32,000 bases of DNA from Geotalea daltonii FRC-32 (GTDB lineage Bacteria; Desulfobacterota; Desulfuromonadia; Geobacterales; Geobacteraceae): positions 630,001 through 662,000 of the forward strand of contig NC_011979.1 of the NCBI RefSeq assembly GCF_000022265.1, read 5' to 3'. Under the pieces are notes generated by a model that made no database searches, was not told the DNA's origin, and was given only the letters and a program-made list of their open reading frames with translations. The position numbers and the translations under genes were made by a program. This document shows positions 21,956 through 32,000 of the stretch, piece after piece (position 1 is the stretch's first letter; each line of letters opens with the position of its first letter).

Positions 21956-22249
21956 ATGGTCGAAGACATGCGGGTCGATTATCAGAAAAAACTGGAAGAG
22001 CGCCTGCGAGAGTGGAAAGGAAAGATCGATTCCCTGAATATGAGTCAGCACCAGATGACGGCTGAAAACAGGGCTGTTCTGAACAGGGAAGTGAAGGACA
22101 TGCTGAAGAAAAAAGAGGTGATGAAGGAAAAATGGAAGGCCCTGCAGAACTCGGATAACCATGGATGGGCGCTACGGAGGGAAGAGCTTGAAAAGGCCAG
22201 TGAAGATCTGAAGGAGGCGCTGGACCGGGTAGCCGCCCACTTCAAATAG
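21956..22249 (+). CDS. Small coiled-coil protein, unknown function
   Basis: 97 aa, highly charged with heptad character. GAGGTG RBS 5 nt upstream of the ATG. Confidence 0.5.
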   Translation: MVEDMRVDYQKKLEERLREWKGKIDSLNMSQHQMTAENRAVLNREVKDMLKKKEVMKEKWKALQNSDNHGWALRREELEKASEDLKEALDRVAAHFK

Positions 22250-22250
22250 T

Positions 22251-22369
22251 GAAAATGCCTCTTTTCCGCCCTGGCGGTGTCAATCCGCGGTCCTGCTTGT
22301 GCGACGTACCGGTGTACGTCTCCGCGCAGTACCTAGAGTTCCTTGCCAGGACGAAAAATAGTCATTTTC
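22251..22369. repeat. Imperfect palindromic element of about 119 bp (long hairpin; possible bidirectional terminator or REP/MITE-like)
   Basis: The outer arms 22251-22275 and 22345-22369 are complementary at 21/25 positions (hand-aligned). The centre is a perfect GACGTAC-CGGT-GTACGTC (22303-22320). Confidence 0.5.
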
Positions 22370-22379
22370 AAATAATTTG

Positions 22380-22634
22380 CTATAAAAAGCCCCGATCGAC
22401 GAAGCTGAGAAAGGCTCCGTCACCGATGATGATATGATCGAGGACCTTGATGCCCAGGAGGTCGCCTGCTTCCTTCAGCCGGCGGGTGATCTCCATGTCT
22501 TCGCGACTGGGGGTCGGGTCGCCGGTGGGGTGATTGTGCACGAGGATAACCGCCGCTGCCGACTCCCGCACTGCCTGATTGAAGACCTCCCTTGGATGGA
22601 CGATGCTTTTGTATTGTGAACCATTTGACCAAAG
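22380..22634 (-). pseudogene. radC: radC (JAMM/MPN-domain protein) 3' fragment, truncated at the island junction
   Basis: The in-frame reading is …NGSQYKSIVHPREVFNQAVRESAAAVILVHNHPTGDPTPSREDMEITRRLKEAGDLLGIKVLDHIIIGDGAFLSFVDRGFL. This is only about the last third of a typical RadC. A TAA at 22635-22637 closes the frame exactly where the base composition changes. Confidence 0.75.
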
Positions 22635-22758
22635 TTAGTTATTAGTTAAAAGGTATACTGTATTCTAATTCAGTGTACCTTTTAATCAAAAAAACGAAAC
22701 GATACCGCGAAAACTGAATTCGACATTTAATGCAAAAATGCTGTAGTTTTATTGCTTA

Positions 22759-22788
22759 TTGTGGCATACTGCTTCGCCAATTTAAAAT
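22759..22788 (+). promoter_or_regulatory. Candidate sigma70-type promoter of the HD operon (TTGTGG-18-TAAAAT)
   Basis: Read by eye. The -10 box lies 27 nt upstream of the HD start codon and the -35 box is weak. Confidence 0.3.
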
Positions 22789-22814
22789 GGTCATTCTTGC
22801 GAGCAAGGTCAACA

Positions 22815-24104
22815 ATGCCACAGTTTTTCGAAATTCGCGACCCTATTCATGGCTTCGTAAAGATTACGGAGTGGGAACGGGACATCATTAATCAACCTGC
22901 CTTTCAACGGCTACGCAGGATTAAGCAACTTGCGTGGACCGACATGACATATCCTGGTGCTACACATTCTCGATTCGAACATTCACTGGGGGTTATGCAT
23001 GTAGTGACAATGCTCTTTGATTCGATCTGCGAGAGACAGCACGATTTTCTTTCCAGTCGTGAATTGCGGTATACAGTAGGTTCGTTGGAAAGGCTTCGCT
23101 GTCTCGTTCGATTAGCGGCTCTCTTACATGACATCGGTCATCCACCTTATTCGCATGCTGCCGAAGAAACTTTTCCGATTGATCCTGAAACTAATGAGCC
23201 GTACCCCCATGAAGAGTATTCTGCTGCTATAGTTAAATTTGAACTTGCAGACGTTATTGAAAATCATCCTTCGAACCATTTTCGCTTTAAAGTAGGTGAT
23301 GTCACCGCTTTTTTCACAAATGGAGCATGTAGAGAATGCTTGTTGTGGAAAGACCTTCTGTCTAGCCAAATGGATGGTGACAGAATGGACTACCTCTTGC
23401 GAGATTCGCATCACGCTGGAGTGAATTATGGCAAGTATGACCTAAACCGAATTGTAGCGACCATACGTCTTATAGAACGCCCCGACTCTGATGGCTACAC
23501 CATGGGCATTGATGAGGATGGAATTCATGCAGCTGAGGGCTTAATTCTTGCACGGTACATGATGTTTACACAGTTATATTTCCACAAGACGAGGGTCATT
23601 TACGACTACCATCTTGTAGAGGCCTTGAAGGAAATATTGACCGAATGTGGAGGTCATTTCCCTTTGCCAACAAGTGCCGACGACATTAAAGAATACTTGA
23701 AATGGGACGATTGGAGAGTTGGTGGAGCAATATCAGAAGGTAAAGGCGGCACCCATGGGCAGATCTTAAAAAATCGCCATCACTTCAGATTGTTGCATCA
23801 GACATCTGAAATACCTTCTATCCCAGAACTTGAAGACATTGATCGGCTTGAAGGTGTGTTGGCACCATTAGGAGCCATTAGGAAAAACGCCGAAAAGTCC
23901 TGGTACAAATTCAAGCAGCTGAATGACGAAATCCTTGTTCTGTCGAACTCCGGAAGTGCCAGATCGTCTGTTCTGCCTCTTTCCGTAAGATCGCCAGTAG
24001 TACAAGGTTTGAAGTCCGTCAACCAAAGCAGAATATACGTGCCCATCGATAAACGAGATGAGGCAATTGAGATTCTAAAAAGACAACAAGGGGAGGGGAC
24101 CTGA
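22815..24104 (+). CDS. HD-domain phosphohydrolase of the SAMHD1 / EF1143 / YwfO type (putative dNTP triphosphohydrolase)
   Basis: Motifs present: FEIRDPIHGFVKI, FQRLRRIKQL, THSRFEHSLGVMHV, LLHDIGHPPYSHAAE, MDGDRMDYLLRDSHHAGVNYGKYDL. Start set at MPQFFEIRDP (ATG at 22815) rather than the TTG at 22752. Confidence 0.8.
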   Translation: MPQFFEIRDPIHGFVKITEWERDIINQPAFQRLRRIKQLAWTDMTYPGATHSRFEHSLGVMHVVTMLFDSICERQHDFLSSRELRYTVGSLERLRCLVRLAALLHDIGHPPYSHAAEETFPIDPETNEPYPHEEYSAAIVKFELADVIENHPSNHFRFKVGDVTAFFTNGACRECLLWKDLLSSQMDGDRMDYLLRDSHHAGVNYGKYDLNRIVATIRLIERPDSDGYTMGIDEDGIHAAEGLILARYMMFTQLYFHKTRVIYDYHLVEALKEILTECGGHFPLPTSADDIKEYLKWDDWRVGGAISEGKGGTHGQILKNRHHFRLLHQTSEIPSIPELEDIDRLEGVLAPLGAIRKNAEKSWYKFKQLNDEILVLSNSGSARSSVLPLSVRSPVVQGLKSVNQSRIYVPIDKRDEAIEILKRQQGEGT

Positions 24105-24105
24105 G

Positions 24106-24639
24106 ATGAGCGGAACTCCATGGAAAGATTACGGTCTGATTTCCTATATTTCACAAAATGTAACTGATTTAGGGAAAACGAAATTACACAAGTTGGTCTA
24201 TCTCATCAAAGAGGTAGGCAAGGTGCCGGTTGGCTTTAATTTTCGCTTTTACAATTATGGCCCCTACTCGGACAATCTTGCTGAGACACTGGATTTTGTA
24301 ACTTCTTTGCAGGGCGTTAAGATGAATTATGATTCCACTGCAAATATGTATGAGATCTCTGCAGGCGAAAATGCAGCAAAGCTTGTTGAAAAAGCGACTG
24401 CTGAACTGGAACCGAATAAACCTACAATTGATGGAATTCTGACTGCTTATGGAAACAAAACAGCTAAAGAACTAGAACTGATAACGACCATACTGTATGC
24501 AAATAAGAATTATGAAGCTAAATCCGTTGAAGCCTTAACTCACACAACTAAAAATTTAAAGCCGAAGTTTAGCCTCACAGAAATTAGAGCATCCATTGGT
24601 CAATTACAAGCATCTGACTTGCTTTCTTTAACACAATAA
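24106..24639 (+). CDS. YwgA-like / DUF4065 (Panacea, SocA-like) domain protein
   Basis: 177 aa. GKTKLHKLVYLIKEVG…FRFYNYGPYSDNLAETLDFV matches my memory of the KLQKLxY…YGPYS signature of this superfamily. GGGAGGGG RBS. Starts 1 nt after the HD gene stop. Confidence 0.45.
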   Translation: MSGTPWKDYGLISYISQNVTDLGKTKLHKLVYLIKEVGKVPVGFNFRFYNYGPYSDNLAETLDFVTSLQGVKMNYDSTANMYEISAGENAAKLVEKATAELEPNKPTIDGILTAYGNKTAKELELITTILYANKNYEAKSVEALTHTTKNLKPKFSLTEIRASIGQLQASDLLSLTQ

Positions 24640-24644
24640 TTGAA

Positions 24645-25058
24645 ATGCTCAATTCATCGGATACAACTTATCTGAGTCTGCTTGAAAAGGCAGACTCAGC
24701 AAGGGAAAATGCTTACTGCGCTTATTCCAATTTCAAAGTTGGCGCGGCTCTGTTAACCAAGTCTGGTAACATTATTTTTGGGTCTAACGTTGAAAATGCC
24801 TCATATGGACTAACAAACTGTGCAGAAAGATCTGCAATCTTTGCAGCGATATCACGAGGTATTAAGCCTCAGGAAATTGATGCCATAGCTATTAGTGCAA
24901 CAGGTGAAAACTTTTCTCCTTGTGGTGCTTGTAGACAGGTTATTTTTGAAATGGGGTCTCAAATAGCTGTAATTTTCAGGTTTAACGGTAAAGTTGTAAT
25001 TGAACGCATTAGCGACCTGCTCCCGTACAGTTTCACGATAACTATCAATGGCCAATAA
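24645..25058 (+). CDS. Cytidine/deoxycytidine deaminase (small homotetrameric CDA type)
   Basis: 137 aa. AYSNFKVGAALL…, catalytic and zinc motifs NCAERSAIF and SPCGACRQVIFE. Confidence 0.85.
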   Translation: MLNSSDTTYLSLLEKADSARENAYCAYSNFKVGAALLTKSGNIIFGSNVENASYGLTNCAERSAIFAAISRGIKPQEIDAIAISATGENFSPCGACRQVIFEMGSQIAVIFRFNGKVVIERISDLLPYSFTITINGQ

Positions 25059-25329
25059 CCTCTTTATTTCATACGACCTTATGAATCCCGGTCAGAATTA
25101 TGACACTGTCATTGATGCCATAAAACTATTAGGCGCTTGGGCTAAAATCCATCAATCATTTTGGTATGTTAGCTCAAATTTTTCGGCCAAGGATGCGGCT
25201 GAACAGGTATGGCGGACCATGGATAGCAATGATAAGTTGCTTGTTGTAAACTCTTCCACCAACGATGCTTATTGGTATAACCTTCCCGGTAACGTTTCCG
25301 AACACATCCAACAACACTGGCGTGGATAG
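25048..25329 (+). CDS. 93-aa protein of unknown function, last gene of the HD/CDA operon
   Basis: Overlaps the CDA gene by 11 nt. MANNLFISYDLMNPGQNYDTVIDAIKLLGAWAKIHQSFWYVSS…DKLLVV suggests an alternating beta-alpha-beta (ferredoxin/Cas2-like) pattern. No family recognised. Confidence 0.45.
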   Translation: MANNLFISYDLMNPGQNYDTVIDAIKLLGAWAKIHQSFWYVSSNFSAKDAAEQVWRTMDSNDKLLVVNSSTNDAYWYNLPGNVSEHIQQHWRG

Positions 25330-25415
25330 CTTTCCTTCGCTCGACTTGCGCTGTCGGCTCGCTGTCCGCGGGTTGAAGAACTCCCTCAGATGAATGATGT
25401 TAGAACCCAATAGGA

Positions 25416-25949
25416 ATGGTAATGCGTCCCATAATATGCGTCACCTGGCTGGTTGCTCTTTGTTTCATGCCAGTATATGCTGCACCAATTCCCGCAAATG
25501 GTACTGTTGAAGCATTTTTTAGCCCGACCGGTGGTTGCACAGAATCCATCATCCGCGAAATCAATGGTGCACAGTCGGAAGTCTTGATTCAGGCTTACTC
25601 GTTTACATCTGCTCCGATAGCCAAAGCTATAATTGCCGCAAAGAGGCGGGGGGTCAAAATCGAGGCTGTACTGGACAAAAGCCAGCGGTCGGCGAAGTAT
25701 ACTGCGGCAACATTTCTCACAAATGCCGGTATTCCACTGTTGATAGATGATCACCATGCCATAGCACACAACAAAATTATCATCATAGACCGGAATACGT
25801 TGATTACCGGCAGCTTCAACTTTACCAAGGCAGCGGAGGAAAAGAACGCTGAGAACCTTTTAGTCATTAAAAACAACCAACCCCTTATATTGCAATACCT
25901 TCAGAACTTCGAACGTCATAGAACCCACTCAGAGCCTTACAAGCGCTAG
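25416..25949 (+). CDS. Secreted phospholipase-D-family endonuclease (Nuc-like)
   Basis: Signal peptide (ICVTWLVALCFMPVYA/AP) and a single HKD motif (HNKIIIIDRNTLITGSFNFT). The size of 177 aa is as in plasmid Nuc nucleases. Confidence 0.8.
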   Translation: MVMRPIICVTWLVALCFMPVYAAPIPANGTVEAFFSPTGGCTESIIREINGAQSEVLIQAYSFTSAPIAKAIIAAKRRGVKIEAVLDKSQRSAKYTAATFLTNAGIPLLIDDHHAIAHNKIIIIDRNTLITGSFNFTKAAEEKNAENLLVIKNNQPLILQYLQNFERHRTHSEPYKR

Positions 25950-26034
25950 ATTACCTTCATTCCGAAGATATCTATTGCTCAGATATGAGAAAAAGTAATA
26001 AAATTCGAATACCTATGCTACAAGGATATGAAAG

Positions 26035-26937
26035 ATGCATATGATTGAAGCGGTTGAAACTATTCAGAATCAACCGGCAATAGACTATAATGTACCGGTA
26101 AACATTGTTACGGGAGACGTGCGTCAACGCCTGTCCGAGCTTCCCGAAAAAATGTTCCGTTGCTGTGTTACCAGTCCACCGTATTGGGGCCTTCGCGACT
26201 ACGGAGCCGAAGATCAAATCGGCTCTGAGATGACAGTTGAAGAATACATAAGTGACCTGACAGCTGTATTCCGCGAAGTTCGAAGGGTTCTGGCCGATGA
26301 TGGCACCTTTTGGCTCAATATTGGAGATTCATACACAAGTGGTAACCGGACTTGGCGTGATCCTGATAAAAAAAATCCTGCTAGGGGCATGACATATCGT
26401 GCACCAACCCCAGAGGGTTTGAAGCCGAAAGATTTAATCGGCATCCCCTGGAAACTCGCATTTGCGTTGCAATTAGATGGCTGGTATCTCCGGTCTGACA
26501 TTATCTGGAATAAACCAAACTGCCAACCAGAGTCTGTCAAAGACCGCCCCACTCGGTCACATGAATATGTGTTTTTGTTGACGAAATCCGAAAAGTACTT
26601 TTACAATTGGGAAGCTGTTCGGGAGCCTGCAAAAACAACAAAGCATTATCGGAGCAAACGGACGGTATGGGATATCAATACTGAACCCTTCAGTGAGGCT
26701 CATTTTGCGGTATTTCCGCCTGGACTCGTTGAACCCTGCTTGATGGCTGGCTCAGAGCCTGGCGATTTTATTCTGGACCCATTTTTTGGGTCAGGGACTG
26801 TCGGGGTGGTGTGCTTGAGGTTAGGAAGGAAGTGCGTTGGTGTTGAACTGAAACCAGAATATGTCGAAATTGCAAAAAAACGACTTCAGCCTGAAGCTAA
26901 TCTATTCCTACCACAAGAAGTAATAAGAGTAGCTTAA
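26035..26937 (+). CDS. Type II DNA methyltransferase, beta-class amino-MTase (SPPY motif, probably N4-cytosine)
   Basis: Motif IV (CCVTSPPYWGLRDYG) precedes motif I (ILDPFFGSGTVGVV). AAGGA RBS. Confidence 0.85.
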   Translation: MHMIEAVETIQNQPAIDYNVPVNIVTGDVRQRLSELPEKMFRCCVTSPPYWGLRDYGAEDQIGSEMTVEEYISDLTAVFREVRRVLADDGTFWLNIGDSYTSGNRTWRDPDKKNPARGMTYRAPTPEGLKPKDLIGIPWKLAFALQLDGWYLRSDIIWNKPNCQPESVKDRPTRSHEYVFLLTKSEKYFYNWEAVREPAKTTKHYRSKRTVWDINTEPFSEAHFAVFPPGLVEPCLMAGSEPGDFILDPFFGSGTVGVVCLRLGRKCVGVELKPEYVEIAKKRLQPEANLFLPQEVIRVA

Positions 26938-27683
26938 CAAGCGAACTTCCATTCGCCATGGACTGTACACAAGCCTTTGCGTAAGTTTTTGATTTGCAAT
27001 TTTCTCTCGCCGCCACCGTCGAAGTATAATTCAAAGACTAATTCTCCATCCTCGAAGACTCGACAGTAACCTGGTTTTGGAAATTGGGTGCTGTCGTTGC
27101 ACATTTCAAAGCTGCCATTTGCGGCTTTTTGCAACAAAGACTTTGGTATTTCAACTAATTCGTAATGCCAATCTTTTGGTGTCCGAGACAAAGTGCGTAG
27201 AGTGAAAATCCGCTGGTAGGCAGCCATATGCCTAAAAAAGCTATCTCGTAATCCATGCAAATCCTCAACCTTATCTCCCCAAACACCTTTACCAAGTTCC
27301 ATGAACTTCGATATATGGACTTTGTCCACCTTCAGGCTCCGGTCTGCTTGCGTCTTTAGGGACACCGGTATGCCCATTATAGTGATATCATGTCCTGGAT
27401 TGCACTTATCTGCCAGCTTGGCAGAAACCCCACACCGACTTAAGGCTTGCTCCATGGCGTATTCAAATTTATCCTTGCTAAATGCATCCTTGGATAAGCA
27501 ATGGTGAATGCGCAAGATGTCCCCAAACGCCTCAAGAAAATCTTCTGAAACGATATCAGAAACAGGATTCCTCCAATATGTGCCAGGTGTTGTCAACCTG
27601 CATGCAATACTTTGAATGCACTCAATTTGCTGCTGGGAAAGTCCAGGAAGAGCACTGGAGAGAGTGTTAAGGCAGATTGGCAT
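26934..27683 (-). CDS. Probable type II restriction endonuclease, partner of the SPPY methyltransferase
   Basis: 249 aa, convergent with the MTase with a 4-nt overlap at the 3' ends. Possible PD…SxK nuclease core (NPGHDITIMGIPVSLKTQ). Has its own strong promoter. Assignment is by context only. Confidence 0.5.
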   Translation of the reverse strand: MPICLNTLSSALPGLSQQQIECIQSIACRLTTPGTYWRNPVSDIVSEDFLEAFGDILRIHHCLSKDAFSKDKFEYAMEQALSRCGVSAKLADKCNPGHDITIMGIPVSLKTQADRSLKVDKVHISKFMELGKGVWGDKVEDLHGLRDSFFRHMAAYQRIFTLRTLSRTPKDWHYELVEIPKSLLQKAANGSFEMCNDSTQFPKPGYCRVFEDGELVFELYFDGGGERKLQIKNLRKGLCTVHGEWKFAC

Positions 27684-27713
27684 ATGCTTCTCCCATCAAT
27701 ACAAATGATGCGG

Positions 27714-27742
27714 AGTATACGCCGCCATAGAGTTCTTGTCAA
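27714..27742 (-). promoter_or_regulatory. Sigma70-type promoter of the putative REase gene (TTGACA-17-TATACT on the minus strand)
   Basis: The -35 box is at 27737-27742 and the -10 box at 27714-27719, about 30 nt upstream of the ATG at 27683. Confidence 0.6.
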
Positions 27743-27801
27743 CCTACTGAATTGTGGGACATTTTTCCTGTCGAACAGTTTTTGCGCCGATAATATAAGC
27801 A

Positions 27802-27830
27802 TTGACAAGAGGCAAAAAGCACATTAAACT
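27802..27830 (+). promoter_or_regulatory. Sigma70-type promoter of the XRE-ImmA operon (TTGACA-17-TAAACT)
   Basis: The -35 box is at 27802-27807 and the -10 box at 27825-27830. It is divergent from the REase promoter. Confidence 0.6.
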
Positions 27831-27855
27831 AATCAGCTAATTAGCGTACTAGCAG
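27829..27855. promoter_or_regulatory. Operator-like box A (CTAATCAGCTAATTAGCGTACTAGCAG)
   Basis: Contains the perfect palindrome GCTAATTAGC (27836-27845) and an ATCAGC half-site (27832-27837). It overlaps the -10/+1 of the XRE promoter. 17/20 identical to box B. Confidence 0.5.
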
Positions 27856-27866
27856 TTTGGGGGTTA

Positions 27867-28181
27867 ATGCGGATGCAGTCAAAAAATGTCAGCTTTGGAA
27901 CTTATATAGCCGAAGTACGCAAGGCAAAGACGATGAGTCAGAAGGAAGTTGCTGCAAAGCTGGATATTTCCCCGCAATACCTGAACGATATTGAACATGA
28001 TAAACGGTCCCCATCCTCTCCGCAGCTTATTGATCTTCTTGCTACTACACTTGAAATAAGTGCTGATTATTTGTCATATTTGGCTGGTAGAATCCCTGAA
28101 GAAGTCAAGGAGAGAAAACTTGACCCAGTCACCTTCGAAAAAGCCATGGTTGCATTTCGTAAAGCAACGGAGAAAAAGTAG
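27867..28181 (+). CDS. XRE-family helix-turn-helix transcriptional regulator (CapH/ImmR-like)
   Basis: 104 aa. HTH_3 pattern: FGTYIAEVRKAKTMSQKEVAAKLDISPQYLNDIEHDKRSPS. Confidence 0.85.
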   Translation: MRMQSKNVSFGTYIAEVRKAKTMSQKEVAAKLDISPQYLNDIEHDKRSPSSPQLIDLLATTLEISADYLSYLAGRIPEEVKERKLDPVTFEKAMVAFRKATEKK

Positions 28182-28183
28182 CC

Positions 28184-28873
28184 ATGCCGAAAATGGTTCG
28201 CGACATAACTGGTAAGTTCAATCAACGGCCACATTACGAACCGCGCGAACTTGATATGGAATGTGAGAAAATTATCTGTGATTTTCTCCGCACCCTTTAC
28301 GGCCAAGTCTCATTTCCTGTCTCAACCGATGATCTAACCAAACTCGTTGAAAAATTTGCATCTTCCTTCGATCAGTACGCTGATCTTTCAGAATATGGTG
28401 CTAACGTTGATGGCCTCACCGAGTTTTACGCGAAGGGAAAGCCGAAAGTTTCGGTTGCGGCAAGGCTTTCCGAATCTTCTACATACGAGAATCGGTTCAG
28501 GACAACCATGACGCATGAACTGTTTCACGCAATTTTCCATGACTATCTCTATAAAATGGAACTGGTTTCTCCAGCGTCAAAGAATGGTGCCTTGCAAATT
28601 TGCAAGCGTGACGACATCATGTCCAAGTCAAAAGCCTCCGGTGCCACCGACTGGATGGAGTGGCAAGCGGGTTATGCTTGTGGAGCGTTCTTGATGCCTG
28701 CCTCTTTTCTTAAAAAGACCGTTGAGGCATACTGCACCGTGGCGAACGTGACAAACCCGATAAGTCAATCAAATCCTCGAAGCGATGAACTCATTGAAGC
28801 GGTTATGTCCGCTTTTCAGGTCTCAAAAGACGCTGCACGGGTCCGGTTGTTGGTTACAAACCACCTGCAATAA
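28184..28873 (+). CDS. ImmA/IrrE-family zinc metallopeptidase (CapP-like)
   Basis: 229 aa. HEXXH motif (MTHELFHAIFH) with downstream EWQAGYACGAFLMP, which resembles the ImmA/IrrE third-ligand region. Starts 3 nt after the XRE gene stop. Confidence 0.7.
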   Translation: MPKMVRDITGKFNQRPHYEPRELDMECEKIICDFLRTLYGQVSFPVSTDDLTKLVEKFASSFDQYADLSEYGANVDGLTEFYAKGKPKVSVAARLSESSTYENRFRTTMTHELFHAIFHDYLYKMELVSPASKNGALQICKRDDIMSKSKASGATDWMEWQAGYACGAFLMPASFLKKTVEAYCTVANVTNPISQSNPRSDELIEAVMSAFQVSKDAARVRLLVTNHLQ

Positions 28874-28886
28874 CAACTGCTTAAAA

Positions 28887-28915
28887 AGCGAGAAAAAATA
28901 TTCTTGCTTTTTTTG
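28887..28915 (+). terminator. Rho-independent terminator after the XRE-ImmA operon
   Basis: AGCGAGAA-AAAATA-TTCTTGCT (8 bp, one G-U pair) followed by TTTTTTGTT. Confidence 0.55.
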
Positions 28916-28924
28916 TTCTCCTCA

Positions 28925-28949
28925 GATACGCTGATTAGCGTATCAGCAG
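28925..28949. promoter_or_regulatory. Operator-like box B upstream of the Ubl operon
   Basis: Two interleaved inverted repeats: GATACGCT/AGCGTATC (28925-32 and 28937-44) and GCTGAT-N6-ATCAGC (28930-35 and 28942-47). The 20-mer at 28930-28949 matches box A at 17/20. It lies 32 nt upstream of the Ubl ATG. Confidence 0.5.
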
Positions 28950-28980
28950 ATACACAAATTTCCCGAAGGAGAACAAACCG

Positions 28981-29238
28981 ATGGAGCGAGAAAAGGATCA
29001 GCAGCACGACGACCACGGCAAGGAGAATGTAACCATCACGATTGACGATAATCCGTGGACGGTACACCGAGGGCACCATACCGTTGCAGAGCTTAAGACG
29101 CTGGCGGGAGTCCCTCTAGCCTATGACCTCGACAGGGTAATCGACGGCAAGTTTGAGCCATTGCCCGACGATGGGGGTGTCACCATCAAAGGAGGCGAAA
29201 TCTTCATCAGCCACGTAAAAGACGGCTCGTCGTCCTGA
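28981..29238 (+). CDS. Single-domain beta-grasp ubiquitin-like protein ('Multiubiquitin'-family, BilA-like)
   Basis: 85 aa. VTITIDDNPWTVHRGHHTVAELKTLAGVPLAYDLDRVIDGKFEPLPDDGGVTIKGGEIF fits the bacterial Multiubiquitin-domain pattern. AGGAG RBS. It is the first gene of an E2-JAB-E1 operon. Confidence 0.65.
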   Translation: MEREKDQQHDDHGKENVTITIDDNPWTVHRGHHTVAELKTLAGVPLAYDLDRVIDGKFEPLPDDGGVTIKGGEIFISHVKDGSSS

Positions 29239-29250
29239 AGGAGGCTCCAC

Positions 29251-29595
29251 ATGGATTTTCCACAGGAACAAATCGATGAAATGAAGGCAACGTTTCCCGG
29301 TATCAGCCACTCAGAGGAAGGCGGATTCGATTTCTTCTTCATACCGGGACTGAAACTGCCGTCGTCCTGTTCGCCGGAATCAGTTGACGTTCTTTTCTGC
29401 CCGAACCAGCGAGGAGGGTATAACTCGCGTTTGTACTTTGCTTCAATGGTCCAGTCCGGAAAGGCCCTTAATTGGAACGGTCAGAACGAATTCATCCTGG
29501 GCCGTCGGTGGTTTGCCTTTTCATGGCAGTTGCCACCCGCAGAAAGACGTCTTTCGCAGATGGTTGCGCTACACCTGAGAGGATTAATATGCTGA
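29251..29595 (+). CDS. Prokaryotic E2-like ubiquitin-conjugating protein (Prok-E2_E type, BilB-like)
   Basis: 114 aa. AAGGAGG RBS. Candidate catalytic Cys in VDVLFCPNQRGGYNSRLYF. The position between Ubl and JAB is as in Bil/ISG15-like operons. Confidence 0.55.
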   Translation: MDFPQEQIDEMKATFPGISHSEEGGFDFFFIPGLKLPSSCSPESVDVLFCPNQRGGYNSRLYFASMVQSGKALNWNGQNEFILGRRWFAFSWQLPPAERRLSQMVALHLRGLIC

Positions 29596-30110
29596 TTCAC
29601 GTCAAGATGACCAGGCATGTTTACGAGAAAATGCGGGCGGACCTGAACCGCCCGCATGATTTCGCCTACGAACGAGTGGGATTCATCTTTGCCCGGAAAG
29701 ACACCGCCGACAAAGACGCAATCCTGCTTCTTGCGACGGAATATTACCCCGTGCCGGATGTTCATTACATCGATGACCCGAAAGTCGGGGCAAAGATCAA
29801 CTCTTCGGCAATCCGCAGCGTTATGGAAAGAGCTTACTCCTCAAAAGAGTGTATATTGCACGTCCATCAACATGACCATTCGGGCGCGCCGCGCTTTAGC
29901 CGGCTTGATCGGCTGGAATACAACAAGATGATACCGTCTTTCCACAATATCGGAGGGGGAGCAATTCACGGTGCTCTGGTGTTCAGTCTGGACAATGCCG
30001 TTGGCTTAGTCTGGACATCAAAACACGATTCGCCCGAACCGGTCAGAAAACTAACCATTGTCGGCTATCCCATAGAGACGCTAAAGCCGGGGGCAGGATT
30101 ATATGTGTGA
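29589..30110 (+). CDS. JAB/MPN (JAMM) metallopeptidase, Prok-JAB type (BilC-like deconjugating/processing peptidase)
   Basis: Start set at MLIHVKM (ATG at 29589), overlapping the E2 stop. Conserved Glu (AYERVGFIF) and a JAMM-like HVHQHDHSGAPRFSRLD. Confidence 0.7.
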   Translation: MLIHVKMTRHVYEKMRADLNRPHDFAYERVGFIFARKDTADKDAILLLATEYYPVPDVHYIDDPKVGAKINSSAIRSVMERAYSSKECILHVHQHDHSGAPRFSRLDRLEYNKMIPSFHNIGGGAIHGALVFSLDNAVGLVWTSKHDSPEPVRKLTIVGYPIETLKPGAGLYV

Positions 30111-30909
30111 CGACAGATACGACAGGCAGTCCTTTTTGGGAGAGAATTCACAGGCTAAGATTGCAGCATGTACCGTCGGGATCATTGGCCTTGGTGGTGG
30201 CGGGTCGCATGTAGCCCAACAGCTTGCGCATGTGGGATTTCAGAAATATGTTCTGTATGACCCGGACATGCCGGAAGACTCGAACCTCAATCGGCTAATT
30301 GGCGCAACGGTTAGGGACGTAAAAAATAAAGTTCCAAAGGTCCAAATCGCCAGAAGGGTCATACGCGGACTACAGCCGAGGGCTAAAATCCAAATGATAA
30401 GGGAGCGCTGGCAAGACAACCCACTCCCGCTCGGGAACTGTGACATCATTGTCGGTTGTGTGGATGGATATAAAGGGCGACATGAGTTGGAAACTTTTTC
30501 CCGCCGCCACCTCATGCCGTACATCGACATCGGAATTGATGTGGTTCAGGTTGATCCCCAACCGCCAGTCTTAAGCGGTCAGGTGATTGCATCTCTTCCC
30601 GGTGGTCCGTGTATGTGGTGCTTGGGTTTCTTAACGGAAAAGAAACTCGCCGCCGAAGCGAAAAAGTATGGCGACGCGGGGCACAATCCGCAGGTGGTTT
30701 GGGCGAATGGGGTGGTTGCCTCTGCCGCAGTTGGTATTGCGGTCGATTTAGTGACGGGGTGGACTGGATCGGCTCAAGATGTTGTTTACTTGTCGTATGA
30801 GGGCAATTCAGGATTGGTGCTACCGCACAAGCGATTGACTGTCGTGGATAGGTCATGTCAGCATTTCCCGCATGATCAGGTGGGAGAGGCAAGGTTTATT
30901 CCACTGTAG
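30103..30909 (+). CDS. ThiF/MoeB-family E1-like adenylating enzyme (BilD-like)
   Basis: RYDRQ, Rossmann IIGLGGGGSHVAQQLAHVG, YDPDMPEDSNLNRL, and a Cys pair GGPCMWC. It overlaps the JAB stop by 8 nt. Confidence 0.85.
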   Translation: MCDDRYDRQSFLGENSQAKIAACTVGIIGLGGGGSHVAQQLAHVGFQKYVLYDPDMPEDSNLNRLIGATVRDVKNKVPKVQIARRVIRGLQPRAKIQMIRERWQDNPLPLGNCDIIVGCVDGYKGRHELETFSRRHLMPYIDIGIDVVQVDPQPPVLSGQVIASLPGGPCMWCLGFLTEKKLAAEAKKYGDAGHNPQVVWANGVVASAAVGIAVDLVTGWTGSAQDVVYLSYEGNSGLVLPHKRLTVVDRSCQHFPHDQVGEARFIPL

Positions 30910-31585
30910 CCATCGAATACTCAACATTGCCTAACAGGTAGGCATAACTGATCTTACCTTTCTTTGAGTCTATCCTTTCTTGGACGATTGCTTTGTCGAT
31001 GCCGATAATCATACCCTTTCTGATCTTTCCCCCCTGTAGGATGGCCCAATAATAGATATCTTCATATAATTTGGTTCTGGATATTTCCAAATCGCTCTTG
31101 GCAAGTGCCTCAAGCATCTTTTCAACAGCGTAATTCTTCTTTACATACCGTTTTAGGGCAACCAATCTTTTCAGAAAATCGTCCTCTCTCTTGATGCGCC
31201 TATTAACTGTCTCAAGCTGGCGATTTGTATACCTCGTCAGGTCAATGCCAGTACGCTTTTTAACCTGTGCATCTGAACCATAAGACAGTCTTTGGTAGAA
31301 TATATTCCTGGCCTGCGATAATTCATCCTTCGCTAGGTAAAACTCTGGCGATAACTTGTTAATATAATTAAATAACTTCATTGAGTAATGCAGCATGCGG
31401 CATTCGTTTATGTCGTACTCATATGCCCGAGAACATAACAGTGCGAGTAGTGGCCTCCAGTACATGGGGTCAGAATTGGTCTTGATTATTTCGAACGTAA
31501 TGTAAAACCATTGTCGCCTGAGGCTTGGTTCCGCAGCGCTCAACTCCTCTTTCGTCATATTGTCGTGGTTCATGACTATGGTCAT
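30896..31585 (-). CDS. Hypothetical 229-aa protein, translationally coupled to the serine recombinase
   Basis: ATGA start/stop overlap with the recombinase at 31582-31585. No recognisable motif. The 3' end overlaps the E1 gene by 14 nt, convergently. Confidence 0.5.
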   Translation of the reverse strand: MTIVMNHDNMTKEELSAAEPSLRRQWFYITFEIIKTNSDPMYWRPLLALLCSRAYEYDINECRMLHYSMKLFNYINKLSPEFYLAKDELSQARNIFYQRLSYGSDAQVKKRTGIDLTRYTNRQLETVNRRIKREDDFLKRLVALKRYVKKNYAVEKMLEALAKSDLEISRTKLYEDIYYWAILQGGKIRKGMIIGIDKAIVQERIDSKKGKISYAYLLGNVEYSMATVE

Positions 31586-32000
31586 GATGCTCTTCCAATG
31601 TCGTGGTCACGCAACTTGCGCGAATGGATAAAGTTGTAGACTGTCCCCCGTGAGACTTCAAAGATTTTTGAAATTGACGCCATCGAAACCTTTTTACGTA
31701 GCAACTCCCTGATCTGCTCCTCTACCCCATCCAGCTTGCTTGCGCTTGTCCGGCCTTTCGGCCTGCCAATTTTCACCCCTGCCGCTTTCTTTGCCTCCAG
31801 TGCTCTTTTTGTTCGCTCAGATATTAAATCCCTTTCCAGTTCAGCGAACAGCGAAAATAACGTGACCATGACCTTGCTTTGGACATTCCCGTTGCCACTC
31901 ACCGTCATGTTCTGTTTGATAGCTATGAGCGCCACCCCCATTTCCGTCAACTGCTTAACAATGTTCAGTACCTCAACGGTGCTTCTGCCGATCCGTGAAA
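31582..32000 (-). CDS. Serine recombinase (resolvase/invertase family), C-terminal part; the 5' end is beyond the window
   Basis: Hand extension of the frame to the window edge gives …SRIGRSTVEVLNIVKQLTEMGVALIAIKQNMTVSGNGNVQSKVMVTLFSLFAELERDLISERTKRALEAKKAAGVKIGRPK… plus a C-terminal HTH (ISKIFEVSRGTVYNFI). Confidence 0.85.
   Translation of the reverse strand, partial: SRIGRSTVEVLNIVKQLTEMGVALIAIKQNMTVSGNGNVQSKVMVTLFSLFAELERDLISERTKRALEAKKAAGVKIGRPKGRTSASKLDGVEEQIRELLRKKVSMASISKIFEVSRGTVYNFIHSRKLRDHDIGRAS

Follow-up and report, generated by a model that had tools for sequence, protein, structure and literature searches.

The window analysed here, a stretch of 32,000 bp from Geotalea daltonii FRC-32 (contig NC_011979.1, positions 630,001–662,000, renumbered from 1), contains adjoining genes for an XRE-family helix–turn–helix (HTH) protein and an M78-family zinc metallopeptidase. 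These are followed on the same strand by an operon for a ubiquitin-like protein (Ubl), an E2-like protein, a JAB-type peptidase and an E1. The pair and the operon most probably (rough probability 0.78) belong to a self-contained, portable switch that runs from a promoter and operator (P1/O1) through the XRE and M78 genes and a terminator to a second promoter and operator (P2/O2) and the cargo genes, the repressor being cleaved by the peptidase. The first-pass annotation of this DNA had proposed that the XRE protein represses both its own gene and the Ubl operon via a common operator, with the peptidase as the de-repressing switch. This core reading is supported by matches of the pair to the PADLOC capH and capP models, by a CapP-like fold of the peptidase, by a two-operator layout in ~85 loci and by the absence of the operator where the cargo is under another regulator. 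The general idea of CapH/CapP beside Ubl operons is already in the literature.

A conserved putative operator on both sides of the regulator pair

The comparison set consists of 85 related loci from many phyla, which are cited by locus number where they need to be told apart. The peptidase family has 1159 matches in public data at E ≤ 1e-5. A scan with one genome per species gave 80 loci, at 44–52% identity, from Alpha-, Beta- and Gammaproteobacteria, Nitrospirota, Chloroflexota, Verrucomicrobiota, Planctomycetota, Cyanobacteria and others. Close relatives (L001–L004, 76–86% identity) are metagenomic.

A 16-bp dyad, TACGCT-N4-AGCGTA, is conserved before the XRE gene and after the peptidase gene. 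The same palindrome, TACGCTAATTAGCGTA, is returned in most loci when no motif is assumed and the best 16-mer common to 150 bp of DNA ahead of XRE and 200 bp behind the peptidase is taken for each locus. Scored over the 12 arm positions with a threshold of at least 10 matches, the dyad is present in 74% of the upstream regions and 74% of the downstream regions, and in 0.4% of 1271 control segments taken from the same loci. Its median position is 38 nt ahead of the XRE start codon on one side and 48 nt past the peptidase stop codon on the other. The first-pass annotation had called for a search for further copies of its motif; within the window, dyad sites with two mismatches or fewer occur only at 27833–27848 and 28927–28942. 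The elements of the regulatory region are as follows.

27802–27830, + strand: promoter P1 of the regulator pair; TTGACA (27802–27807), 17-bp spacer, TAAACT (27825–27830); 10/12 in a consensus scan
27833–27848, no strand: putative operator O1; dyad TCAGCT-AATT-AGCGTA, 10/12 arm matches, left arm degenerate
27851–27856, + strand: third half-site AGCAGT, 2 bp past the right arm of O1 in an 8-bp phase; forms the 3' part of box A (see below)
27867–28181, + strand: XRE-family HTH protein, putative CapH-like repressor, 104 aa; Pfam HTH_3 4e-13, PADLOC HTH_VI 3e-14, capH 3e-11
28184–28873, + strand: M78 (ImmA/IrrE/CapP-like) zinc metallopeptidase, 229 aa; Pfam Peptidase_M78 8e-6, PADLOC capP 2e-6
28883–28912, + strand: predicted intrinsic terminator, hairpin and T-run; 12 pairs, minimum free energy −14 kcal/mol, z = −5 against shuffles
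28904–28932, + strand: putative cargo promoter P2; TTGCTT (28904–28909), 17-bp spacer, TACGCT (28927–28932)
28925–28944, no strand: putative operator O2, perfect 8+4+8 palindrome GATACGCT-GATT-AGCGTATC; core dyad 28927–28942, 12/12
28945–28950, + strand: third half-site AGCAGA, in the 8-bp phase after O2; forms the 3' part of box B (see below)

The XRE open reading frame (ORF), the HEXXH peptidase, the promoter and two 20-bp boxes described in the first-pass annotation all lie where it had placed them. Box A (GCTAATTAGCGTACTAGCAG, 27836–27855) and box B (GCTGATTAGCGTATCAGCAG, 28930–28949) are identical at 17 of 20 positions, as it had claimed, and box B ends 31 nt ahead of the Ubl ATG (28981). 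The internal palindromes it had named in the boxes exist literally, but the evolutionarily conserved dyad sits in a different frame; the notion of a common operator stands, with the functional dyad TACGCT-N4-AGCGTA placed 3–4 bp to the left. It had also raised the question of whether a resemblance of this kind is common in AT-rich DNA of this genome. Searching with a pattern made from both boxes is circular and was replaced by an unbiased test, in which the two intergenic regions, of 183 and 107 bp, are compared on both strands for their best-matching 20-mer. The best match is 17; none of 1000 dinucleotide-shuffled controls attained this value, and 4 of 981 randomly drawn pairs of real window segments did. 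Taken alone the similarity is unusual, not overwhelming.

Two loci, L085 and L086, constitute a natural control. Both have the same Ubl-E2-JAB-E1 cargo under a different regulator, and their promoter region contains no TACGCT dyad. Across the loci compared, the operator follows the regulator and not the cargo. The divergent module in these loci (L085 3658–5701; L086 1680–3867) consists of a sigma-factor-like protein of 219 aa, a small protein and an M78 peptidase, and two copies of GTTGGTTCGCAAA are found in the promoter region instead of the dyad.

A scan of viral contigs for the dyad gave 24 hits, only one of which (L089) has the module. The viral contigs L093 (11939–12028) and L098 (7545–7634) contain three tandem dyad-like sites (12/12, 11/12 and 11/12, spaced by 47 and 27 bp) near the contig end, with no detectable XRE or M78 homologue on the stretch examined.

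Promoters, terminator and phased half-sites

O1 begins 3 nt past the −10 hexamer of P1 and lies over the predicted transcription start. The sequence TTGACA-17-TAAACT, or TAACAT at the −10 position, is also present in L001 and L004, and O1 in the clade of the window has slipped 8 bp downstream of the better −10 hexamer, TAAACT. In profiles anchored on the dyad a TTG-type −35 element (conserved TTGc) is found exactly 17 bp before the site, in the upstream and downstream sets alike, so that the left arm TACGCT, which has the form TAnnnT, occupies the −10 position. The 3' arm of the terminator hairpin includes the −35 element of P2. The terminator is kept in L001 and L004; as a family-wide feature it was rejected, because only 22% of the family loci have z < −1.5.

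Additional half-sites are located on the transcribed side of the dyad. At offset +18 the half-site AGCGKA follows 40% of the upstream sites and 48% of the downstream sites, and its GC core is retained in 91% of the latter. In the downstream set, half-sites are also found at +26 (31%) and +34 (10%), against a half-site background of 1% and values near 0% at out-of-phase offsets. The period of 8 bp is not that of the helical repeat. In L005, L008, L016, L018, L045, L049 and L111 as many as four direct AGCGGAT-like units, repeating every 8 bp exactly, come after the operator on the cargo side, and in L008 and L018 these units also make an 8-bp inverted repeat, CGCGGAAC-N4-GTTCCGCG, in the would-be 5' untranslated region.

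The XRE protein and the gene pair

The true start of the XRE protein is likely the second ATG (27873), giving 102 aa as in its homologues, since the Shine–Dalgarno (SD) sequence GGGGG (27859–27863) fits this codon better. The PADLOC capH match covers profile positions 2–80 of 103, and the HTH of ImmR (7t8i) is matched at 1e-4. The recognition helix is ISPQYLNDIEHDKRSP in the window and, in the form ISPQYLNDIEHD, is at least 90% conserved across the 85 loci. The C-terminal 35 aa carry two conserved motifs, LAG(R/K)xP and (A/N)FR(K/R). The conserved FR of the second motif lies 6–18 aa from the C-terminus (F97-R98 in the window), elsewhere than the F82|R83 site of CapH, and F97|R98 is a candidate cleavage site.

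The peptidase gene begins 2 nt past the XRE stop codon, and the XRE gene is directly before the peptidase gene and co-oriented in all 84 loci on which this count is based. The complete six-gene module, XRE-M78-Ubl-E2-JAB-E1, is kept in L001–L004 without the SmaI restriction–modification (R-M) system that adjoins it in the window. Nothing is conserved upstream of XRE among 60 loci, the largest cluster comprising 4 of the 60. The cassette is a plug-and-play, portable unit with a fixed left border.

The peptidase

The peptidase contains a HELFH motif at residues 111–115, and its key residues are H111, E112, H115, the invariant E159 and the invariant C140. The PADLOC capP match covers only positions 41–153 of the 242 in the profile. 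An AlphaFold2 (AF2) model built with 84 sequences has a predicted local distance difference test (pLDDT) value of 89, and its best Foldseek match is Thauera CapP (7t5t; E 1.2e-5, template modelling score TMq 0.55, 19% identity), followed by PprI/IrrE (8slm, 3dti).

Beyond residue 154 the model is all-helical; for this reason, and because the protein has 229 aa compared with the 278 of CapP, the GAF domain is concluded to be missing. In CapP and IrrE single-stranded DNA (ssDNA) is bound by a groove lying between the peptidase and GAF domains, and in CapP this binding releases a cysteine-switch loop, which is found in about 33% of the CapPs of cyclic oligonucleotide-based antiphage signalling systems (CBASS). 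Residue C140 is invariant in the 84 sequences and is located on a predicted strand (138–142) in a low-confidence insertion between H115 and E159. This is the topology of C113 between H100 and E129 in Thauera CapP, and in the model C140 is a candidate cysteine switch; a latent, switchable protease is plausible. With the GAF half of the CapP groove missing, ssDNA cannot be assumed to be the activating signal, and judging by the model the published ssDNA/GAF activation mechanism cannot apply unchanged to this peptidase. The induction by DNA damage to which the first-pass annotation had pointed is not safe to assume for the same reason.

The Ubl operon and other cargo

The four cargo genes of the window are arranged as follows.

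28981–29238, + strand: ubiquitin-like protein, 85 aa; SD AAGGAG at 28966–28971; Pfam Multi_ubiq 1e-3, below the cut-off
29251–29595, + strand: E2-like protein with a predicted BubB-like fold, 114 aa; invariant C50, S59 and S91
29589–30110, + strand: JAB/JAMM-type peptidase, 173 aa; motif HVHQHDHSGAPRFSRLD
30103–30909, + strand: minimal E1 with a single ThiF adenylation domain, 268 aa; Pfam ThiF 2e-27

The Ubl ends in ...KDG followed by an SSS tail, as a pre-Ubl, and the glycine with a three-residue tail is kept in L001, L004, L085 and L058. For the E2-like protein, of which only 12 homologues were found, sequence searches gave nothing in Pfam (E up to 5), NCBIfam or the PDB, and comparison with Prok-E2_E and DUF6791 by BLASTP and hhalign was not significant. 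Its identity is therefore resolved only by structure: the AF2 model (pLDDT 90) has a single significant Foldseek match, Citrobacter BubB (9eae_C, E 3e-3, TM 0.67). The JAB-type protein similarly has no direct match in the PDB, Pfam (E up to 5) or NCBIfam, and aligns with the N-terminal JAB domain of BubCD-like fusions with an hhalign probability of 93% (E 3e-7), the motif being aligned. The best PDB sequence match of the E1 is the adenylation domain of Citrobacter BubCD (4e-16), and no Bil E1 is among its PDB matches. No DUF6527/BubE ORF follows the E1 gene in the window, L001 or L004; one is present in Bub-type loci of the same regulator family. The operon is thus related to Bub but divided into four separate genes in the order found in Bil. 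It belongs to neither defined family: BubE is missing, and the E1 does not have the Bil IAD-AAD-CYS architecture.

Two DUF488 genes and a DuOB-domain gene adjoin the window-type E1 in L085 (7770–9436), L086 (5936–7601) and L004 (3659–5317). Their strand is the same in L085 and L086 and the opposite one in L004; the window lacks them, and they may be an accessory part of this type of cargo.

In all loci examined the cargo after O2 is co-directional and on the same strand, and at least five kinds of cargo are found. These include Type I-like Bub (13 loci), Type II Bub (at least 12), DUF3892 (7), CBASS with SAVED and SMODS (4–5) and a DUF7665 set (3), together with DUF2188 and the Ubl-E2-JAB-E1 type of the window. 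A small DUF2188 gene comes first after O2, before the Bub genes, in L005 (5001+107), L111 (5328–5555) and ~20 other loci, and in some loci DUF2188 is the sole recognizable cargo. An example from a cultured host is plasmid pRphaR620c of Rhizobium phaseoli (AMC86_RS26100–26130), where the PGAP annotation, made independently, gives the order HTH, ImmA/IrrE, DUF2188, multiubiquitin, E2/UBC, ThiF and DUF6527. Both operators are in the predicted places there, with a P2-like layout and 8-bp-phased units after O2.

Unannotated cargo follows O2 in 16 loci (L026, L027, L029, L039, L042, L059, L061, L064, L072, L073, L077, L078, L080 and L082–L084). Its genes encode proteins of 395 aa and then 315 aa, neither with a Pfam match, along with small ORFs and an AAA_24 ATPase. 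This operon is a candidate uncharacterized defence system.

Genomic surroundings

The GC content falls from ~57% to ~45% near 22 kb and remains low for the rest of the window (~22000–32000); the low-GC region ends near a C-terminal resolvase fragment (31582–31950, − strand) and looks like a horizontally acquired island. Genes for a 450-aa HD-domain protein and, behind it, a 177-aa SocA/Panacea-domain protein lie at 22752–24639, and at 1014–2878 in L001; in L001 and L002 this pair is directly upstream of the XRE module. In the window, genes for a deaminase, a phospholipase D-like (PLD) protein and the SmaI system look inserted between the two. Those at 24645–25949 are of the defence-island type, namely a cytidine/dCMP deaminase (24645–25058), an overlapping 93-aa ORF (25048–25329) and a PLDc_2 nuclease-like protein (25416–25949).

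The SmaI-type R-M pair occupies 26035–27742. Its M gene (26035–26937, + strand) and R gene (26934–27683, − strand; Pfam SmaI 4e-175) are convergent with a 4-nt overlap, and a near-consensus promoter that diverges from XRE, TTGACA-17-TATACT (27742..27714), serves the R gene. Neither a C-protein gene nor a TACGCT operator is found at this promoter. On the other side of the module a 229-aa ORF (30896–31585, − strand), with no Pfam or PADLOC match, converges on the E1 gene with a 14-nt overlap. A megablast search of 26000–31000 against plasmids gave no match.

Proposed mechanism and alternative explanations

From the gene content, the folds and the positions, conservation and specificity of the operators described above, we infer DNA binding by the XRE protein, repression, cleavage and the nature of the signal as follows. 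An XRE dimer would bind the 16-bp dyad, with extra protomers perhaps on the 8-bp-phased half-sites. Binding to O1, just past the −10 element of P1, would give negative autoregulation. O2 would provide the −10 hexamer of P2 and cover the cargo start site, and for this reason the bound repressor would exclude RNA polymerase and silence Ubl-E2-JAB-E1. Since O2 is a perfect dyad and O1 an imperfect one, repression should be tighter at the cargo than at the regulator genes. The co-transcribed peptidase would be made in a latent form, its invariant C140 falling on a strand between HEXXH helix and third zinc ligand, as the switch cysteine does in CapP. A signal of infection or stress, perhaps not ssDNA, would activate the peptidase, which would then cut the C-terminal region of the XRE protein; dimer-dependent DNA binding would be lost and both promoters would open. 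CapH/CapP is the precedent for such repressor cleavage (bioRxiv 10.1101/2022.04.27.489752; 10.64898/2026.05.16.725639).

Several observations weigh against this mechanism. Direct half-sites in an 8-bp phase do not fit a simple HTH-dimer model. Operator identity is the same within loci as between loci (13.16/16, p = 0.53); there is no within-locus covariation signal because the operator is invariant, and covariation therefore gives no proof that the cognate XRE protein is the binder. An invariant recognition helix does fit an operator that does not vary, in line with the XRE protein in that role. The conserved F-R dipeptide of the XRE tail is not at the position of F82|R83 in CapH. On the side of the peptidase, a profile of 21 family members matched no solved structure among the PDB sequences, CapP and IrrE included, the structural match to CapP is moderate (TM 0.55), and the GAF domain required in the published ssDNA activation model is not present in the model of the protein.

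The absence of XRE–operator covariation and the arrays of half-sites, which are atypical for HTH dimers, could also be explained if the dyad is real but bound by a host factor or by the helical domain of the peptidase itself, the XRE protein acting elsewhere. This is quite improbable, as the dyad is found from Chloroflexota to Pseudomonadota only beside this XRE family and is gone once another regulator takes its place; no host factor would be conserved over such phyla, and the recognition helix is invariant, like the operator it matches. Xre-COG2856 pairs have been put forward as toxin–antitoxin (TA) modules, and the window pair might be such a type II-like module (Xre antitoxin and COG2856/M78 toxin) that regulates only itself, with the downstream box incidental. 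Weak NCBIfam matches of the XRE protein to the HipB, HigA and spr1629 antitoxin families, and weak PADLOC matches to the RmrA HTH–peptidase models, are consistent with a TA module. Such a module is nevertheless unlikely, because the second operator is as conserved as the first (74% vs 74%) and forms the −10 element of P2, co-directional cargo is always present downstream, and the fold of the peptidase and its candidate cysteine switch match a regulatory protease. Chance similarity of two AT-rich intergenic regions is scarcely credible. Both regions have ~40% GC in a window of 53% GC, and real pairs of segments do reach 17/20 in four cases, but no shuffle does, and this explanation is refuted by the conservation data, the motif being found at both positions in ~85 independent loci.

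The genomic setting suggests two further explanations. The order of HTH gene and peptidase gene, the short GAF-less peptidase and the low-GC island ending near the resolvase fragment would suit an immunity switch of the ImmR/ImmA type that governs excision or transfer of the island and not a defence operon. The genes after O2 are, however, those for Ubl, E2, JAB and E1, elsewhere Bub, CBASS, DUF2188 and DUF3892, and never an integrase or excisionase; the window holds no further operator copy, the XRE-M78 family is absent from a collection of 50,697 phage genomes, and the viral-contig hits bring the module with them once in 24. An excision switch is very unlikely in the face of these findings. 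It is still less probable, to the point of being hardly worth entertaining, that the XRE protein is the controller (C) protein of the adjoining SmaI-type R-M system, as might be proposed from the strong promoter (27742–27714) of the divergent R.SmaI-like gene and from a PADLOC Control_protein match at 4e-6. The capH model outscores Control_protein, the R promoter has no operator, no gene is conserved upstream of XRE in 60 loci, and the retention of the module in L001–L004 without the R-M system removes this explanation.

Comparison with known systems

CapH/CapP (E. coli MS115-1 and Thauera sp. K11; Lau et al., 2022; Calloji et al., 2026) similarly combines an XRE-HTH repressor of ~100 aa with an HEXXH M78 peptidase beside a defence operon. 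It offers the closest solved fold, the conserved cysteine of the window family lies, by the model, on a comparably placed strand, past the HEXXH helix and ahead of the third zinc ligand, and its cargo kinds overlap with those found here (Bub, CBASS, DUF2188, DUF3892). The window family is also comparable in having, as predicted from sequence, a conserved dyad over the −10/start region of the cargo promoter in 74% of the loci. CapH+CapP pairs have been reported beside 25/162 Type II Bil and 168/544 Bub operons, and also beside DUF2188/DUF3892, CBASS and DISARM. There are also differences. The window peptidase lacks the C-terminal GAF domain (229 vs 278 aa), and the ssDNA groove cannot form as described. 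Published CapH/CapP genes are divergent from the cargo and have one common promoter region with it, in 'all but one case', whereas the window pair runs in the direction of its cargo, from a promoter of its own, and in its clade a terminator precedes the cargo. Two operators lie over −10/start regions in the window, unlike the single 22-bp site of CapH upstream of −35. Finally, the F-R of the window XRE protein is at the extreme C-terminus, and the CapH site is in the first helix of a two-helix dimerization domain.

The ImmR/ImmA systems of ICEBs1 and phage-like elements of Bacillus have an HTH repressor followed by a short, GAF-less M78 peptidase in one operon. There the repressor autoregulates and represses a second promoter, and proteolysis de-represses. 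The window differs in controlling a defence-type cargo in place of genes for integration, excision or transfer, in having its second promoter downstream and co-directional instead of divergent, and in the structure of its peptidase, to which CapP is closer than anything annotated as ImmA. The pair resembles ImmR/ImmA in gene order and lack of GAF, and CapP in fold and candidate cysteine switch. DdrO with IrrE/PprI, from the radiation response of Deinococcus, likewise pairs an XRE repressor with an M78 peptidase, by which DdrO is cleaved, and has a palindromic operator in its target promoters; it gives the second-best structural match. IrrE, however, has a GAF domain and no cysteine switch, and serves a dispersed chromosomal regulon with a different motif, whereas the regulon of the window consists of two adjacent promoters. 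The C proteins of R-M systems are also small XRE-type HTH proteins with a palindromic box at their own promoter, and a SmaI-type system is next to the window XRE; the latter does not travel with R-M genes, always has the peptidase next to it and has no box in the R promoter.

The cargo is closest to the Type I Bub system (BubAB, BubCD, BubE; Ye et al., 2024, PMC11601596), with the E2 fold of BubB, an E1 nearest to BubCD, a BubC-like JAB protein and a Ubl of the Multi_ubiq kind with a glycine and tail. The four proteins are separate in the window, in contrast to the Ubl-E2 and JAB-E1 fusions of Bub, and the E2 lacks detectable sequence similarity to Prok-E2_E or DUF6791. It has been stated that 'all Bub operons encode BubE', and the window has no DUF6527/BubE. 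The gene order Ubl-E2-JAB-E1 is that of BilABCD, but the window E1 is a single domain of 268 aa and not a tandem IAD-AAD-CYS protein.

Implications

Little is understood of how the transcription of anti-phage systems is controlled, and only three types of regulator, CapH/CapP among them, have been dissected. For a large sub-family regulating Bub, CBASS, DUF2188/DUF3892 and other cargo, the operator and promoter architecture is set out explicitly here for the first time. Within the literature searched, no description was found of this sub-family's GAF-less architecture, its strictly co-directional layout with two promoters, its operator sequence, the coincidence of that operator with the −10 element or the phased half-site arrays. 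The exact sites, the candidate switch residues C140 and E112, the F97|R98 dipeptide and the cultured host Rhizobium phaseoli R620 offer testable handles. The dyad is in addition a simple sequence tag for new defence cargo behind O2, such as the operon with the 395-aa and 315-aa proteins and AAA_24.

We suggest tentatively, as a possibility with appreciably less than even odds, that these modules represent a distinct and widespread family (>1100 peptidases) that has been lumped under 'CapH+CapP' but differs in sensor, regulon and cargo architecture. If this is true, a GAF-less sensor with a cysteine switch cannot sense ssDNA via the published groove and may answer another infection cue. The cargo of the window would then be a fourth architecture of bacterial ubiquitin-like conjugation, an unfused Bub relative without BubE, and the 8-bp-phased half-site arrays may give cooperative, switch-like release. 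Finally, operator and recognition helix show essentially no variation from Chloroflexota to Pseudomonadota; the cassettes that share a cell would then all cross-talk as one regulon of defence operons.

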